64,000 nt of DNA. It comes from Candidatus Glassbacteria bacterium. Lineage in GTDB: Bacteria; Gemmatimonadota; Glassbacteria; GWA2-58-10. Both the position numbers and the translations under genes were made by a program. Below the pieces are notes generated by a model. The model was not told where the DNA came from, did no database searches, and worked only from the letters and a program-made list of their open reading frames with translations. How positions within the stretch are numbered: the first letter of the stretch is position 1; every line of letters starts with the position of its first letter. Location of the stretch: contig VRUH01000004.1 in assembly GCA_019456185.1 (NCBI GenBank), forward strand, positions 11,131 through 75,130, read 5' to 3'. Positions 4,699 to 34,810 of this stretch are shown here, in pieces.

Positions 4699-5801
4699 GC
4701 TTGTTCCCCTTTCAGCCATTTGTCTGGTGCGACGGCGACATGGTTCACCGCCGACTCGTAAGCCGCCTCCACAACGGCCATCGTGCCCAGGTTGCTTTCA
4801 CCGCCCAGGTTCGGTTCCGCGCCCGTTTCCAGGGCGACCAGCAACTCGGCCATCGGCCCGGCGAACGCGTCAGGGAACCAGACCTCCTCCCAGCGGGGGC
4901 TGTGCCACTCGCCGTTGTCGTCAACCGTCGTGTAGTCGATCGTGCTCGGCGTACGCGCCGGGTATTTGGGCCACCCGATAGTCCCTTTGGCCAGCCCTTT
5001 GGTGCCCTCGATACGCCAGTGGATTCGGATATCGTCACCCGCCCCCTCGCGTGCCGGACCTGTCCAGACATCATCCCAGGAGGTGGCCCGCAGGCCGGTG
5101 TTATCGTATTCCAGGATGTAGAGGCAGATACCGTCCGTGTGCTCGAACTTGGTACGCGGGTCGGGGCGCGTGCTGGCGAACACGCGGTCCGGGTTGCCGA
5201 ACCAGAAGCGGAACGTATCGAGGTGATGGATCGACATGATCCGCAGGGTGCACCAGCCCTGACGTTCCTGCCACGGCATCCAGTGGGGGATAGCGCGCAT
5301 GTCGATCGTGGCCAGGACAGGTTCTCCCAGCGCCCCATGATCCAGCAGACTTTTAGCCGCGCGGATACTCTGGTCGTAGCGCATGTTCTGGTTCACCGCC
5401 AGGGTGATTCCGGCCTCGCGGCAGAGCCTGACAATCTCGGCGGCCTCGGCGTAATCCGCTCCCAGCGGTTTCTGGGCCAGGATCCCTCGGACATGGTCGG
5501 CGTGCCGGACCGTTTTACGCACCATCTCCAGCTGGATATCCGGCGGCACGCCGATATCGACCACCTCGATTTCCTTATCGGCCAGCAGCGCGTTGGCCGT
5601 GTCGTAGACTCTGGGGATCTTGTGACGGTCGGCGGCTTTGCGGGCGCTATCGCCCCTGGAGGCGATCGCCACCGGATTGAACCCGGCGTCGCGGTAGGCG
5701 ACCAGGTGGCAGTCGGCGACGATAAAGCCCGCGCCGATACACCCGATCGGCACGTCGCGGCGAGCGGGCATCACCGGCTTGTAGTCGAGTTGAACACTCA
5801 C
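4695..5801 (-). CDS. Gfo/Idh/MocA family oxidoreductase (cytoplasmic)
   Basis: Rossmann N-terminus [17 protein letters not shown] and Gfo/Idh/MocA C-terminal domain. The exact start is ambiguous: GTG 5801 follows AGGAGG by 4 nt, ATG 5771 is an alternative, and the track start is GTG 5816 overlapping the upstream stop. Confidence 0.75.
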
Positions 5802-5812
5802 GTAACCTCCTG

Positions 5813-7666
5813 TCACTTGACAATGATATCGAGCAGAGCGTTGCGCACACGGTCGTAGTCGTCGCCCCGCTGGCTCCAGGGCACGGGGTCCTTCATCTCG
5901 ACTTCATCCAGCCCGCGCGGGACAATCTCCTTGACCATCGCCAGCACCTTGTCCCTGCCGACTTTGTGCTGGGCCAGCCACATCAGCTCGAAATCCTGCT
6001 GGCCGCGGCGCATGTTCTTGAGCCGGATCGAGGGCAGGATCCGGGTCAGGCCGCGGTCCTCTTCGGGGTAAAACGGCATGCGTCCGGGGTAGAACACGAT
6101 CCCGTCGCCGTTGCCGAAATTCATCCCCCAGCTGATAAAGGTCAGCGGCTCGGTGAATACCCGCTGATGCAGCCGTCCCTTGGGTCCCTGCGAGTTGTGC
6201 TGCCAGTGGTTGCCGTGCCAGAGGAACCAGGTGTCGACTCCGTAGAGATACTTGACCCAGGCGTTGACCCGCAGGTCAACAGCTTCGGCTTCCAGGATCA
6301 CCGAGCCGTAGCGCGGGCGGGAGCCGTTGTAGAACCAGTGGTTCTTGCCCTGCTGTTTAAGTTTCGGCAGGGCTTCCAGGTCCACACCATGGCCGCCGGC
6401 CCAGATATCTATCGCCTCATCGAGTTCGGGCGTGTACTGGCGCGTGGTAAACACGGGCAGGCGCTTGCCGGGTCCGGGGTTGGAATGGACCCAGTCGGCA
6501 TGCTCCTTGATCCAGGGGAACTGCACCTTGCCCGGCTCGTCGATCATGTACCAGAAATAGGTGACATCCGGCGCGTTTTTCTCGAACCAACTCACCCACT
6601 TGTCGCTTTCGGCCCGTGTGTTCTCCATGCTGTTCATCACCCTGTCGGTGATCGCACCGTACATCCCGACCGAGAACAGTTTTTCGCCCTCGCCCTCGCC
6701 GGGGCCGTGGTAACCGTTGGCGGGAGTAAACGCACTGCCGTCGAGCCAGCCCTTGTACGAATCCATATCCGCCTGGTCGAACGGGTTGCGGTGGGCGTCG
6801 CTGCCGCCGACCAGGTCGGCCCGGTGACGGTGGGAGATGAACTTGAGCATCTTCTCGGCTTCTTCGTCGCTCAGCTCCGGGAGATAGGTCTTGATCGTGC
6901 CCACGCCGGCATAGAGCCAGATATTCGAGTGGTTCTCGTCGGGAAGGCGGGCCGGCAGCAGTTCGACACTCAGCGGGATGCGGCGTACTTCCGCGCCGTT
7001 TTCGCTGACCCGTACCGTGCTGGTATAGACTCCCGCCGGCCAGCGGCGGTCGCGGGGCAGATAGAGGTCCACCCAGAAGCCCTGGTTCTGGGCCGCCTGG
7101 CGGGGATTAATCTCCAGCGTGTTCTGCCGGCGGTTGACTTCCTGACGGGTAGGCTGGATATCCAGCGGAAACCCGCCGCGTCCTGTGCGGGCGTCGGTCG
7201 GGATCAGCGCGTCCGGAATCCAGCCGGTCATCTTCTCCGGTGCGCTGGCCTCCGATCCATAGAACCATTGCGGTTTGGTGGGGCGTCGCACGCGAAGGTA
7301 GTGCTGGCTGAACAGCTCGACAGTCCCGCCCGGACCATAAAGCATTCCACCCGAGCTCATCGCCACGCCCGCGCTCTGATGTACCGGCGGGTCGACAGCG
7401 ATCTCCACGCCCTTGGCGCCGAGGCTGTCGGCAACGACAATCACCTGGAAGGCCAGCACCTCGTTATAGAGGCCCCGCAGGCTGATCCGCCGGCCGTTCC
7501 AGATACTATTTTTGGCTTTGGAGGGATGGTCTTCCTCGTAGCGGAACACTTTCTCGCCATCGCCGAGCGCCCAGGCGTCGATTACCGCCGCCTGCGAGAT
7601 TGCGCCCGAAAGGAGAAGAGACAACAGTACGACAAAGCTCGTTTTCACCAGACTTCCGTTGGTCAC
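5813..7666 (-). CDS. Secreted hypothetical protein, glycoside-hydrolase-like (DUF4091-like impression)
   Basis: GTG start with GGAGGTG SD and signal peptide. 617 aa, Trp/Tyr-rich. Loose resemblance to the 49306-50916 product. Function not established. Confidence 0.55.
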
Positions 7667-27337: not shown

Positions 27338-29017
27338 ATGAGATCCAAGCTGATCCTGGCCGGTTTAATCGTCCTGGCGGCATCGCTGGCCGCCTGCGCC
27401 GGAAAAACAAGTCCCAAATTCGATATCCTGATCACCGGTGGGACCGTAATCGACGGCACCGGCGCTCCGCGCAGGCAGGTCGATGTGGGTATCATCGCCG
27501 ATACGATCGCCGCGGTGGGGGACCTGGCTGGAGCCTGGTCCGGCCGGCTGATCAACGCCTCCGGGCGGATTGTCGCTCCCGGGGTGATCGACATCCACGG
27601 CCACAGCGATTACAGCATCCTGGTGGACGGCACCGCCCAGAGCAAGATCCGCCAGGGCGTGACCACCGAGATTATCGGCGAGGCGCTCTCCGCGGGGCCG
27701 ATCAGCAGGGCAGGACAGAATTTCAAGCGGGTCGAGGCGCCGCTGTGGGACGCGGATATCGAGTGGAGTACCCTCGGCGAGTATTTCCAGGTGCTCGAGC
27801 GCAGGGGGAGCTCGATCAATATCGGCTCGTTCGTGGGTACGATGAGCGTGCGGCGCTACGTGATCGGCGACACCAACCGCAACCCTTCCGATGTGGAACT
27901 GGACAGCATGTGCGTGCTGGTGGACGCGGCCATGCGCCAGGGCGCGCTGGGAGTGTCCTCGGCTCTGCTGGGCAGCCCGCTCACCACCGCTGAGCTGATT
28001 GCGATGGCCAGGGTGGCCTCGCGCCACGGCGGGATTTACAGCACCCATGTTCGTGATGAGGGTTCGCTGATATTTTCCTCCCTGGACGAGGCGTTCCGGA
28101 TCGGCCGCGAGGCGGATCTCCCGGTCGACGTTATCCATCTCAAAGTGGCTGAGCGCGACCTGTGGGGCAGGATGGACAGCGTGCTGGCCCGGTTCGAGCA
28201 GGCGCGCGAGGAGGGGCTCGACGTCACCGCCAACATGTACCCCTATATCGCCGGGCAGAACAACCTGTCGGCCCTGATTCCGCCGGAGGGACAGGACGGC
28301 GGCCGGGATAAGATGCTCGAGCGGCTGCATGACCCCGGCTGGCGCAGGCAATTCAAGGAAACGCTCTATGCCGGCGGCCGCCCCGACTGGTACAACCACT
28401 ACACCTCCAGCGCCGGCTGGGAAAGCATGCTGGTTGTCTCGACAAAGGCTGAAAAGAATCAGGACCTGATCGGCAGGCGGATGAGCGAGGTGATCGAGAT
28501 GCGCGGCGGCGAGCCCACCGACGTCCTGTTCGACTTGCTGCTGGAGGAGGGCGGCTCCGTGCCGACAGTCTATTTCCTGATGAGCGAGGAGGATGTCCGC
28601 ACGGCGATGGTCCATCCGCTGGTCTCGTTCTGCAGCGACGGGGTGGCGGTCCGCCCCGAGGGTCCGTTGGGCAAGGGCAAACCGCACCCGCGCTGGTACG
28701 GAAGTTTCCCGCGGATTCTGGGCCGCTACGCCCGCGATCAAAAGGTCCTGAGCCTGGAGTCGGCTGTCCATAAGATGACCTGGCAGAATGCAGAAAAACT
28801 GGGTATCACCGGGCGCGGTCTGATCAAAGTGGGTATGGCAGCCGACCTGATGCTCTTCGACCCGGAAAGTGTGCTTGACCGCGCCACGTTCAGCGACCCG
28901 CATCACTACCCCGAGGGAATCGAATACGTGCTGGTCAACGGCACGGTTGTCATCGATAAGGGCGAGCACACGGGCGCGCTGCCGGGCCGGATTATCTACG
29001 GCCCGGGCAGGGAATAA
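27338..29017 (+). CDS. D-aminoacylase (N-acyl-D-amino-acid deacylase; amidohydrolase superfamily) lipoprotein
   Basis: Lipobox LAAC; PGVIDIHGHSD metal-binding motif; about 560 aa, typical of the D-aminoacylase family; adjacent to RidA. Confidence 0.75.
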   Translation: MRSKLILAGLIVLAASLAACAGKTSPKFDILITGGTVIDGTGAPRRQVDVGIIADTIAAVGDLAGAWSGRLINASGRIVAPGVIDIHGHSDYSILVDGTAQSKIRQGVTTEIIGEALSAGPISRAGQNFKRVEAPLWDADIEWSTLGEYFQVLERRGSSINIGSFVGTMSVRRYVIGDTNRNPSDVELDSMCVLVDAAMRQGALGVSSALLGSPLTTAELIAMARVASRHGGIYSTHVRDEGSLIFSSLDEAFRIGREADLPVDVIHLKVAERDLWGRMDSVLARFEQAREEGLDVTANMYPYIAGQNNLSALIPPEGQDGGRDKMLERLHDPGWRRQFKETLYAGGRPDWYNHYTSSAGWESMLVVSTKAEKNQDLIGRRMSEVIEMRGGEPTDVLFDLLLEEGGSVPTVYFLMSEEDVRTAMVHPLVSFCSDGVAVRPEGPLGKGKPHPRWYGSFPRILGRYARDQKVLSLESAVHKMTWQNAEKLGITGRGLIKVGMAADLMLFDPESVLDRATFSDPHHYPEGIEYVLVNGTVVIDKGEHTGALPGRIIYGPGRE

Positions 29018-29186
29018 CGTAAAAAAGCAGGAGTAAGAAGAAAAGATTAGCTTTGCAGAATAACAGGAGAGAGAGTGAGACCTCCGGCCTAAGGGTATGT
29101 GTATTGAAGTCTTAGTTATGACCTAATATGTGTTAAGCATTTTATAATGACCAGATGGGTAACCTTCTGTATTCATTAAACTGATG

Positions 29187-29828
29187 TTAGGAGCCATCTC
29201 TTTTTTCGATTGCTTTTCTCTTTTCCTCAGGTAGCGATTGGTATAAGGCATCAACTTCTTTTGGTTGTGTTATCCTATCATGAGCTATGAAGTTAACCAG
29301 ACGAAACATTTTTTGGACTGTATCGATATCGTCTTTTAAATCCAATACTCCAGGATGAACGGCTTCGTTTCCAGTGACCCTTACAATATCAAGTGCCTTT
29401 TGAATTCCTACGGGCATTCCATCTTTTACTAATGAGGCTATATCTTCATTGATATTTTTGCCCGGTTTACCCAATTGCTTACATAATTTTTGAATGCATA
29501 AACGCAATAGGGCAGCGGCTGCTCTCGGCGATTTAGGCGTTATGGATTTTGCTTCATTGAAATCATCTTGAATATCTTTTTTTAAATCCGGATTAGGAGT
29601 ATCGGAGATTTCAATGTCCGGCAAAATCATTTTTTTATTGACCCAAACGGCTTGATTATTACATGCGTTGCATTTTGAAATATACAGATAATCTGCTGGG
29701 TTATCTGCATCGGGAGAAGCGCTATCATCTTTGAACCATTTTATTACCCTGTACCAGAATTGTTGAGCGTGAGCATTACAAACAGGACATTCAAAACTTC
29801 TTTTTTTATAATTTGGAACTACAGCCAT
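29187..29828 (-). CDS. DUF4145-like (HEPN-clan, Abi-like) protein with N-terminal Cys4 zinc-ribbon; sits in an AT-rich islet
   Basis: CPVCNAHAQ...CNACNNQ zinc-ribbon; C-terminal AAALLRLCIQKLCKQLG...IASLVKDG.MPVGIQKALDIVRVTGNEAVHPG fits the DUF4145 pattern (iR..GN.aaH). GC is about 38% against the ~63% surroundings. Strong SD AGGAGG. Confidence 0.6.
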   Translation of the reverse strand: MAVVPNYKKRSFECPVCNAHAQQFWYRVIKWFKDDSASPDADNPADYLYISKCNACNNQAVWVNKKMILPDIEISDTPNPDLKKDIQDDFNEAKSITPKSPRAAAALLRLCIQKLCKQLGKPGKNINEDIASLVKDGMPVGIQKALDIVRVTGNEAVHPGVLDLKDDIDTVQKMFRLVNFIAHDRITQPKEVDALYQSLPEEKRKAIEKRDGS

Positions 29829-30042
29829 TTATCCTCCTGGCAAGAGTTTTGTTAAATATAACGCATGTCAAAGCAAAAAAAAAGACACACTTGTAGATGC
29901 AAGGTATTACCTGTTTATTGCTGATTCTTTTAATATTAAGGATACTTCACTACACTTGGCCTAACAGGAGGAGGACAGTTAACTGTTCAATGCCTATTAA
30001 TAGCGATTCTGGCTTCTGACTCCTGACTTCTAAGGTAGACCT

Positions 30043-30846
30043 ATGAATAGTAAAATAAATATAGCTTTAGTGGGACTTATTCTACTTTGCCTGGCGCCTT
30101 CTTTCTCCCCCGCACAGTACCAGGACACTGAGCGTCAGTGGGAAAAAATCTACGGCAACCGGCTGTTCGAGCTGATCGAGGAACGTCCGCTGGCCTGGCT
30201 CCCGTTCGGCGTACTCGAGCGCCACGGCGAACACCTTCCCTGGGGCCTGGACGGCGACAAGGCTCACCTGGTCTGTGTGCGGCTGGCCGGGAAAATGGGC
30301 GGAGTGGTGCTGCCTGCCAGCAACCTGGCCGGGGTTCACGGCGACCGCCGTCCTGACCAGGACGAGGAGCAGTTCCGCAGAACGCACCGTGAGGTCGGCG
30401 ATTTTCTTTTCAGCGAGGGTTTTCTGCACCGTTTCCTGCTCGAATCGTTCGATGGCCTGGCCAATCTGGGTTTCGCTGTGATTGTCGCCTACTCCGGCCA
30501 CTGGTCCTCCATTCAGGGTGAAATCCTTAAGGCCGCGGCGGAGGAATTTAATTCTACCGGCAAGGCCATTGTGATACCGTTCGGCGAGATCATGGCCTGC
30601 GGTGTGGTAGATCATGGAGCCAAATACGAGAGTTCGATGTGGGCCGCGCTGGTGCCCGGCGGCGTCAGGATGGATTCAATTGTGGACTACAGCACCGGCC
30701 GCAAGGACTGGTACCGGGGCAAGGAGATCGCCAGCCAGATCAGCGCCGAGTTCGGCGAAGAAGTGTTGAAAATGATCGAAGACTACATGGCCCGTGAGTT
30801 GGACAAGGCGTTCAGCAGCGTGGATAACGGCAGGGGAGAGGAATGA
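30043..30846 (+). CDS. Creatininase-family metal-dependent amidohydrolase (creatinine amidohydrolase / MftE-like) with predicted signal peptide
   Basis: LAWLPFGVLERHGEHLPWGLD matches the creatininase GxxExHGxHLPxxxD motif. Only the first ~30 nt of the N-terminal signal peptide MNSKINIALVGLILLCLAPSFSPAQ are AT-rich. Confidence 0.65.
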   Translation: MNSKINIALVGLILLCLAPSFSPAQYQDTERQWEKIYGNRLFELIEERPLAWLPFGVLERHGEHLPWGLDGDKAHLVCVRLAGKMGGVVLPASNLAGVHGDRRPDQDEEQFRRTHREVGDFLFSEGFLHRFLLESFDGLANLGFAVIVAYSGHWSSIQGEILKAAAEEFNSTGKAIVIPFGEIMACGVVDHGAKYESSMWAALVPGGVRMDSIVDYSTGRKDWYRGKEIASQISAEFGEEVLKMIEDYMARELDKAFSSVDNGRGEE

Positions 30847-33637: not shown

Positions 33638-33733
33638 ATAACTATAGCTGTTGTCAAAAGTCTTTCTTTTTGAAAAGGAAAGAAGACATTAAGAATGGTA
33701 CGGAAAAACTTCCATTGCTAAAGAAAATCGTAG

Positions 33734-33753
33734 GGGCGACACATGTGTCGCCC
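33734..33753. repeat. Perfect 20-bp palindrome GGGCGACACATGTGTCGCCC
   Basis: Sits between convergent genes; member of the GGGCGA-N8-TCGCCC palindrome family. Confidence 0.8.
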
Positions 33754-33783
33754 GTCAACCTGTGCACCTGCTGAATTCTTTGC

Positions 33784-33803
33784 GGGCGAGGCATGCCTCG
33801 CCC
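33784..33803. repeat. Perfect 20-bp palindrome GGGCGAGGCATGCCTCGCCC
   Basis: Lies 30 bp after the previous palindrome. Near-identical to the hairpin at 25656. Confidence 0.8.
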
Positions 33804-33955
33804 CTACAACGTTTGGTGTTAACGGGGGTGTAAGAATTCTCATTCTGTTGCATAAGAGGCCCGGACAAAACGAGGTTTTACCGGTGGCTGCGGACAAAAT
33901 CGGGTCAATATGCAGTGAGAAAATATGAGAAAAAACGAGTGGAAAATGAAAACCT

Positions 33956-34480
33956 CTAAACACTATATGTTGTGGTTTGAGAAATACGTCCGACCGCGCC
34001 CTTGGCAGTATTATAGGGCTTTTGCTTGTATCCTTTTACAGCCTCAATACAGACCTTAACCACAATATTTCGGAATTGCGTAAGTGTTATATTCACAGTC
34101 ACATCAGGATCAATATTTTGCATAGACATTTTCCCGTCGGAGAAGAAAAACTGCCAATATTTACCTTCATGTACAACATCGCATCTGACATCGTACAAGA
34201 AGTCAATTATTTCTCTGAGAGTCAAAGGTTTTTGATTAGGATTAATAATATTGTGCCTGAATCCGTTTTTTAGGTATTCTCGTTCCTGTTGTGGGACAAT
34301 TTCCTCAAAAAACTTTCGTGTGTAAATCCTCGATTTTCCTTCCTTATTGAAGTTATGGTAAAGCTTCGAAATGTTTTCTGCGCATATCAGCAAGAAAAGC
34401 AATTGAAGGGATTCGCGGTCGGGCTTAATTCGGGGCAAATCGTCTGCCAAGGATATGAGCCTTTGCGCTTGATGCATCAT
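33956..34480 (-). CDS. Hypothetical small protein with an Rx4H (HEPN-like) motif in an AT-rich islet; possible Abi-like RNase
   Basis: About 35-38% GC. LYDVRCDVVHEGKYW carries R-x4-H. Start uncertain: ATG 34480 or TTG 34516. No homolog recognised. Confidence 0.45.
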   Translation of the reverse strand: MMHQAQRLISLADDLPRIKPDRESLQLLFLLICAENISKLYHNFNKEGKSRIYTRKFFEEIVPQQEREYLKNGFRHNIINPNQKPLTLREIIDFLYDVRCDVVHEGKYWQFFFSDGKMSMQNIDPDVTVNITLTQFRNIVVKVCIEAVKGYKQKPYNTAKGAVGRISQTTTYSV

Positions 34481-34743
34481 TATTGTAGCTTCATGTTTTT
34501 GATCATTTGGGCCCAAACTCTCTAAGCTTTCAACGAACTGCCTCGCATCTTCAAGTCTATTAAAAAAAAGGAGAATAAAAGTCTAGCCACTCATTCATGG
34601 CCTCAACTCCTGTTTAGAGAATACAGCAAAAAGTTATCATAAAGATATGTCTAAGTTATACAGCGAAATAATACAGGTAAATTCAATAGATATTTTGATC
34701 ATGCTGATGAATCTCTCTCGCCATTAGAGGGTTATATATTACA

Positions 34744-34775
34744 ACAAAGGGACACGGCATGCCGTGTCCCTTTGT
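34744..34775. terminator. 32-bp perfect palindrome AACAAAGGGACACGGCATGCCGTGTCCCTTTGTT (bidirectional intrinsic terminator)
   Basis: GC stem flanked by AAA/TTT on both arms; 36 nt after the stop of the 34811-36232 gene. Confidence 0.6.
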
Positions 34776-34810
34776 GTTTAAAGAATAATTTTGTTGCTAA
34801 TACAGATCTA

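Follow-up and report, generated by a model that had tools for sequence, protein, structure and literature searches.

The stretch of DNA analysed in this study (the window) covers 64,000 nucleotides of contig VRUH01000004.1 from a metagenome-assembled genome (MAG) of Candidatus Glassbacteria bacterium, and near its position 29,000 it contains an AT-rich islet of about 1 kb that carries a single gene of the RAZR (PD-T7-4) family of anti-phage RNases. The islet separates two plus-strand genes, which encode an Amidohydro_3 amidohydrolase upstream and a creatininase-family protein downstream (Table 1). The mean guanine-plus-cytosine (GC) content of the window is 59.1%. In successive 50-nt intervals GC dips to 0.26-0.52 between approximately 29000 and 30100, with flanks of 0.62-0.68. 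The kilobase from 29001 to 30000 has a GC of 0.375 versus 0.591 for the window as a whole, and no other stretch of the 64 kb departs as far from the contig average in its tetranucleotide composition (z=6.46). An earlier note on this DNA, made from the sequence alone, had described such an islet between high-GC plus-strand genes and proposed a k-mer comparison with the rest of the contig; both the compositional contrast and the deviation are borne out, the islet being the strongest outlier of the window. The extent given there, 29018-30072, holds for the islet as such but not for its end, since the AT-rich stretch runs past the creatininase start to approximately 30087 and 30072 lies inside it. 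Less pronounced dips in GC, at 17.5-20.5 kb and 40.7-42.5 kb, fall within large native-looking genes.

The only substantial open reading frame (ORF) of the islet lies on the minus strand, and every other ORF there encodes 43 amino acids (aa) or fewer. Its GC content at third codon positions (GC3) is 0.29, versus 0.72-0.83 in the neighbouring genes. A perfect Shine-Dalgarno sequence can be read directly upstream of its start codon, in agreement with the lone minus-strand gene and strong ribosome-binding site described before. No integrase or transposase families were identified among the genes called within 10 kb on either side of the islet, as the earlier note had also stated of mobility genes; no restriction-modification (R-M) genes are present within the same distance, and no tRNA genes were found in the 64-kb window.

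Table 1. Features of the RAZR islet, its flanking genes and the nearby second islet (positions in the window)
Feature	Position	Strand	Basis or remark
Amidohydro_3 amidohydrolase gene (upstream flank)	27338..29017	+	
Inserted AT-rich DNA	29034..30087	.	GC and 4-mer profile, empty sites L003/L083, junction alignments; edges +/- ~50 bp
RAZR/PD-T7-4-family gene, 213 aa (stop codon included)	29187..29828	-	ORF list, PADLOC, PDB phmmer, Foldseek
Shine-Dalgarno sequence AGGAGG, 4 nt 5' of ATG	29833..29838	-	Read directly in the sequence
N-terminal Cys4 zinc-ribbon, aa 1-69, putative phage-trigger sensor	29622..29828	-	Invariant cysteines, AlphaFold2 beta strands
C-terminal DUF4145 / divergent HEPN RNase domain, aa 84-213	29190..29579	-	PF13643, all-helical model
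Catalytic motif R150-x7-H158 (DIVRVTGNEAVHPG), equivalent to E. coli RAZR R146/H154	29355..29381	-	Alignment to 9y9c
Remnant of native amidohydrolase-creatininase spacer with old ribosome-binding site (AAAGCAGGAG)	29018..29033	+	Aligns to the 32-bp spacer of L083, aagataaatcagaaaacaggagg
Imperfect inverted repeat, left arm	29017..29040	.	24 nt, 75% complementary to 30013-30036
Imperfect inverted repeat, right arm	30013..30036	.	Partner of 29017-29040
Creatininase-family gene (downstream flank)	30043..30846	+	
First ~15 creatininase codons (MNSKINIALVGLILL), apparently supplied by the insert	30043..30087	+	GC3 0.13 versus 0.75 in the rest of the gene
Second-islet ORF, 186 aa	33956..34516	-	ORF call

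In PADLOC, the protein encoded by the islet is a full-length match to the PD-T7-4 model (PDLC04109; E=2.7e-84, 279.9 bits), with residues 3-212 aligned to positions 5-208 of the 211 in the model. Pfam DUF4145 (PF13643) spans residues 91-171 with E=1.8e-13 and 50.8 bits, the cut-off being 23.1 bits, and phrog_1305 was matched in PHROGs (E=1.5e-28), while no NCBIfam model matches the protein. A sequence search of the PDB retrieved chain 9y9c_OA, deposited as 'DUF4145 domain-containing protein' (phmmer E=1.1e-55, residues 7-211), which is RAZR of Escherichia coli UMB1727 (RAZR^Ec). The same chain was the single significant PDB match (Foldseek E=6e-8, prob 1.0) of an AlphaFold2 model of the protein with a predicted local distance difference test (pLDDT) score of 84.8. 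The nearest other protein found anywhere is just 58% identical. As judged from its sequence, the gene is a bona fide member of the RAZR family with its active-site residues intact. The single-gene abortive-infection or defence module that the earlier note had put forward is thus supported, by homology, through the full-length PD-T7-4 match, and its reading as a candidate stands; the family, having been named already with a structure and a mechanism, makes the finding less novel than that word implied.

Conserved residues were examined in an alignment of the protein with 27 homologues of 48-58% identity. The zinc-ribbon pattern is C14-x2-C17 ... C53-x2-C56, and these four cysteines, which align with C16, C19, C49 and C52 of RAZR^Ec, are invariant across the alignment and are the predicted zinc ligands. 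Beta strands are modelled in this region at residues 11-13, 20-27, 48-53, 59-63 and 66-69. The linker that follows contains invariant P70 and D81 together with P78 and N79, each conserved in at least 90% of the sequences, and the E. coli linker residues AGN68-70, which have been described as non-conserved, correspond to IEI in the Glassbacteria protein. The C-terminal domain is modelled as all-helical and yields weak Foldseek matches to the HEPN proteins 2q00, 4nqf and Csm6'. R150, N154 and H158 are invariant in it, and the catalytic spacing is R-x7-H versus the canonical R-x4-6-H of HEPN RNases. Both the Cys4 zinc-ribbon and the DUF4145/HEPN-clan domain had been recognized at these ends of the protein in the earlier note, and the invariant cysteines and the Pfam match agree with it. 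Identity to RAZR^Ec is 45% overall, 54% in the HEPN part and 30% in the zinc-finger domain. This strong divergence of the sensor domain suggests a different phage trigger, which is probably a phage protein other than those recognized in coliphages; a diverged sensor surface is what the biology of the family leads one to expect. A subgroup of RAZR homologues with 260-270 aa (e.g., P0045, P0048, P0082, P0086, P0104, and P0108) carries an insertion of approximately 55 residues in the zinc-ribbon loop between the Cys pairs, within the sensor region, and may represent a distinct trigger-recognition variant.

Comparison with three syntenic loci, which were found by searching for relatives of the amidohydrolase, indicates how the islet came to lie where it does. 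The RAZR gene is absent from all three of them. In L003, where the amidohydrolase and creatininase are 81% and 66% identical to those of the window, the two genes overlap by 4 bp (ATGA) and GC stays at 0.57-0.70 throughout; in L083 (80% and 69%), they are separated by a 32-bp spacer with a ribosome-binding site. Because the site is empty in these two closest relatives, the islet is an insertion in the Glassbacteria genome, and the empty-site check bears out the horizontal acquisition that had been suspected earlier. The third locus, L084 (Ga0214473_10000284; 69% and 64%), has a junction of ~1.9 kb (5675-7620) that holds a minus-strand gene of native GC, which encodes 469 aa with a twin-arginine-like signal, and a spacer with a GC of 0.48. 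This different insert indicates that the amidohydrolase/creatininase junction is a variable spot in the lineage. The junctions of the islet and its neighbours have been assembled twice, in ENA scaffold_216 and in the 4.2-kb Logan contig SRR8799001_14155 (run SRR8799001), and their recurrence in an independent Logan assembly shows that they are not the artefact of one assembler.

At the upstream edge, the amidohydrolase ends in ...IIYGPGKE* in L083 and ...IIYGPGRE* in the window, and this likeness indicates that the stop codon in the window is native. Downstream, the 5' end of the creatininase gene has no DNA similarity to the signal-peptide codons of the relatives before approximately 30110. 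Judging from codon composition and these alignments, the insert appears to have replaced the creatininase start in frame, so that the start codon and the N-terminal part of the signal peptide are both new. The longest inverted repeat of the region sits exactly at both edges of the islet (18 of 24 positions match). It exceeds 500 of 500 shuffled sequences and real-sequence controls reach 17 matches; its significance is uncertain. A transposon or an element resembling a miniature inverted-repeat transposable element (MITE) was rejected because the repeat is just one match above those real-sequence controls and its left arm overlaps the apparent native spacer, and no convincing target-site duplication was seen at the islet edges. 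An integron cassette was rejected as well, since no attC core pair (RYYYAAC ... GTTRRRY at 30-130 nt spacing) occurs on either strand of 28980-30120. A search of plasmid DNA for a donor gave no match to the islet. As the comparison with the empty sites shows, a defence gene that is self-contained can settle within a metabolic operon, apparently even re-coding the start of the gene behind it, with no recognisable mobility machinery.

PD-T7-4 was found by functional selection in E. coli and was shown experimentally to be a single-gene abortive-infection defence (PMC9519451). It was renamed RAZR, for ring-activated zinc-finger RNase, in Nature in 2026 (PMC13017515), where its architecture was described as a Cys4 zinc-ribbon at the N-terminus joined to a DUF4145 domain at the C-terminus, the latter being a divergent HEPN RNase. 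RAZR defends by abortive infection and becomes active once 24 copies surround ring proteins of the phage, namely Gp77 of SECphi27 and the portal Gp8 of T7, T3, and SECphi18; the assembled enzyme then cuts single-stranded RNA non-specifically, which blocks translation (PMC13017515). The substitutions R146A and H154A abolish defence by E. coli RAZR, phage specificity is set by the zinc-finger domain, which varies more than any other part of the protein, and protection against phages has been demonstrated only for the E. coli and Klebsiella homologues (PMC13017515).

By homology to E. coli RAZR, the Glassbacteria protein would rest as inactive dimers or linear oligomers. Its Cys4 zinc-ribbon would attach to a large phage protein of ring shape, for instance a portal, and as the protein wraps round this ring, the paired DUF4145/HEPN domains would be shifted into positions in which their composite R150/H158 site is active. 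The activated enzyme would be expected to cut single-stranded RNA (tRNA, rRNA, and mRNA) without specificity, translation would halt, and the infected cell would die or arrest ahead of phage release, which corresponds to abortive infection. Zinc binding, oligomerisation, RNase activity, ring-triggered assembly, and phage defence through abortive infection in the Glassbacteria host are all predicted in this way from the characterized homologues.

Several observations weigh against carrying this mechanism over. Superposition of the model on 9y9c is poor globally, with template modelling (TM) scores of 0.39-0.45 and a root-mean-square deviation of 10 A, which is probably due to a different inter-domain orientation and to the HEPN part of the deposited structure being itself a fitted prediction. 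Among the residues that contact the trigger in E. coli (R29, Y31, R35, T41, and E43), only one of five is conserved in the window protein, where the corresponding residues are R27, I29, S38, P44, and D46. The residues between dimers (V21, D179, D180, and R184 in E. coli; A19, H183, D184, and Q188 here) are identical at one of four positions, and two of the three salt-bridge residues are altered (D179 to H183 and R184 to Q188), with D180 kept as D184. These interface positions also vary across the family alignment, so that the higher-order assembly may rest on other contacts or be of another form. Finally, a promoter scan upstream of the RAZR gene found no sigma-70-like site above chance, so that expression of the gene is only putative, and a terminator scan of the islet likewise found nothing above chance.

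Family membership, intact catalytic and zinc-ligand residues, foreign composition, and insertion relative to two relatives are established here. We consider it likely that the islet arrived recently by horizontal transfer, as an insert of ~1 kb at the junction of a native amidohydrolase-creatininase operon of this Candidatus Glassbacteria MAG, and that its one intact RAZR (PD-T7-4) gene acts by the RAZR mechanism.

One alternative is that the gene is a silent or decaying passenger, which arrived through illegitimate recombination and is neither expressed nor functional in Glassbacteria, with no role in defence. The lack of promoter and terminator signals above chance would fit such a passenger, as would the lack of partner or mobility genes, the unameliorated GC of 37%, which may be poorly expressed in a host of 59% GC, and a neighbouring islet gene (described below) that is apparently frameshifted, so that islets of this kind can decay. 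However, the ORF is full length, it retains all invariant residues of the family and a perfect AGGAGG, its sequence is identical in two assemblies, and RAZR is a self-contained single-gene system (PMC13017515) that would need no partner; we therefore regard a mere passenger as improbable.

It seems about equally improbable that the gene encodes a RAZR-family RNase put to another use, either as a stress- or plasmid-responsive toxin or as an R-M accessory, with a trigger that is not a phage ring protein. The low identity of the sensor domain to E. coli RAZR, with its single retained contact residue, would agree with such a role, two of the four homologues whose contexts were sampled lie between hsdM and hsdS, and for DS-38, another defence protein with HEPN and Zn-finger parts, a different use of the Zn finger has been proposed (bioRxiv 10.1101/2025.01.08.631726). 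Against this, R-M genes are lacking within 10 kb on either side, zinc-finger variation itself sets phage specificity in the family (PMC13017515), and the architecture and linker (P70, P78-N79, and D81) are conserved. Chimeric low-GC DNA of another organism, brought into a high-GC contig by an assembly or binning error, is scarcely credible despite the MAG source and the abrupt compositional jump, given that both flanks are native and adjacent in relatives, which indicates an insertion and not an end-to-end join, that the same junctions were assembled independently, and that the islet retains a native spacer remnant and is fused in frame to the creatininase ORF.

A second one-gene AT-rich islet was identified at ~33640-34810, 3.6 kb from the RAZR islet, with a GC of approximately 0.40 and a 4-mer z of 5.6. 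Its ORF has no Pfam or PADLOC match and belongs to an unnamed family of ~185 proteins of ~190 aa, all annotated as hypothetical, in which the motifs IMMHQxQR and LYxVRCDVVHEG (R-x4-H) are invariant. The copy in the window is without the N-terminal ~27 residues of the family, whose codons lie upstream in a different reading frame, beyond an A8 run at 34561-34568. Reading the minus strand from the ATG at 34598 (34517-34598) gives MNEWLDFYSPFF, and with one base fewer in the A8 run it gives NRLEDARQFVESLESLGPNDQKH..., which matches the N-terminus of the family. The location of these residues in the other frame across the A8 run indicates a +1 frameshift, which may stem from a sequencing error or from phase variation, or may mark a pseudogene. 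A model of a full-length family member (P0122) reached a pLDDT of 89, and its best PDB match was the HEPN RNase AbiV, which was not significant (E=1.5). Relationship of this family to RAZR was rejected (hhalign probability 0.3%), as was a common element for both islets, the ends of which share no sequence above shuffled expectation.

The closest relative covering both sites, L003, contains neither the second islet nor the RAZR islet, and mobility genes are absent from both islets. The closest homologue of the second-islet gene, 73% identical, was found in a Gemmatimonadota MAG (L169, JBHPKC010000001.1, 5001-5585), where it stands alone directly downstream of NADH-dehydrogenase (nuo-type) genes and before an aminotransferase gene; this solitary position among housekeeping genes repeats the lone-gene pattern. 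Three perfect GC-rich palindromes centred on CATG (e.g., gggacacggCATGccgtgtccc) flank the second islet at 33730-33757, 33783-33805, and 34751-34772, and these may be terminators or elements similar to repetitive extragenic palindromic (REP) sequences. A regulatory or antitoxin RNA was rejected, as Rfam yielded no match at threshold; its sole sub-threshold match, BcKCsr7 (27.7 bits versus 59), corresponds to a hairpin in the second islet formed by the palindrome at 34751-34772. The two unrelated islets might point to an unrecognised route, independent of integrases, by which single defence genes reach operon junctions in these high-GC lineages, with the second gene representing a new HEPN-like abortive-infection family, a speculative reading that we hold to be rather unlikely. 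The second islet is nonetheless the less ordinary object of the neighbourhood when set beside the RAZR islet.

GenBank has 10 phage records with RAZR homologues, and such genes also occur on at least 101 contigs of IMG/VR. The contexts of four homologues on long contigs (L163, L164, L165, and L167) were looked up. In L163 (2157-7835) and L167 (4226-11611) the gene lies between hsdM and hsdS of a type I R-M operon, in L164 it adjoins an ApeA-HEPN gene, and in L165 it is located at the end of a prophage beside AbiJ and an integrase. L167 additionally contains a second, different DUF4145 gene (238 aa) directly after hsdS. A preprint reports that PD-T7-4 ranks with the most frequent defence cassettes in sedentary chromosomal integrons (bioRxiv 10.1101/2024.07.02.601686). 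The contexts of the homologues fit a mobile defence gene, for which a solitary place within a metabolic operon is unusual but not contradictory.

RAZR/PD-T7-4 has already been named, structurally solved, and mechanistically dissected, and the islet gene represents a known system, here in a lineage new for it and with a new variant of the sensor; in other respects it is an ordinary member of an established defence family. It extends a recently solved mechanism, by homology, to Candidatus Glassbacteria, a lineage that is uncultured and distant from the enterobacteria in which RAZR was studied. The naturally diverged sensor, at 30% identity, could be used to test the claim that RAZR senses ring geometry and not sequence.

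Compared with RAZR^Ec, the Glassbacteria protein shares the two-domain architecture, the conserved linker, the Cys4 ribbon, the R-x7-H pair, and the organization as a single-gene system, and it is similar in length (213 aa versus 219 aa in the deposited 9y9c chain), whereas its loop between the Cys pairs is six residues longer. Different from many E. coli homologues (PMC9519451), the gene neither adjoins nor overlaps an integrase gene. In another member of the family, RAZR^Kv of Klebsiella variicola, a different zinc-finger domain confers a different phage range (PMC13017515), which provides a precedent for a different trigger here; RAZR^Kv is 78% identical to RAZR^Ec, and the window protein is far more distant from RAZR^Ec (45%). 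The PD-T7-4 cassettes of integrons likewise form a compact single-gene unit that moves without a mobility gene of its own; the Glassbacteria islet differs from them in having no attC-like pair on either strand and no integron integrase nearby. The DUF4145 genes in the type I R-M operons of L163 and L167 are homologous to the islet gene (53% identical by tblastn) and of the same length, but they are embedded between hsdM and hsdS, whereas the copy in the window is solitary in a metabolic operon. AbiV, ApeA, Csm6, and the HEPN toxins of HEPN-MNT use an alpha-helical HEPN-type RNase domain for suicidal RNA cleavage, as is predicted for the islet protein, whose fold matches of this type are weak. 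From these other abortive-infection RNases of the HEPN type the protein is distinguished by R-x7-H in place of R-x4-6-H, by the fusion to a zinc-ribbon sensor, and by having no antitoxin or partner, and RAZR as a family is further set apart by activation through assembly on a ring scaffold (PMC13017515).

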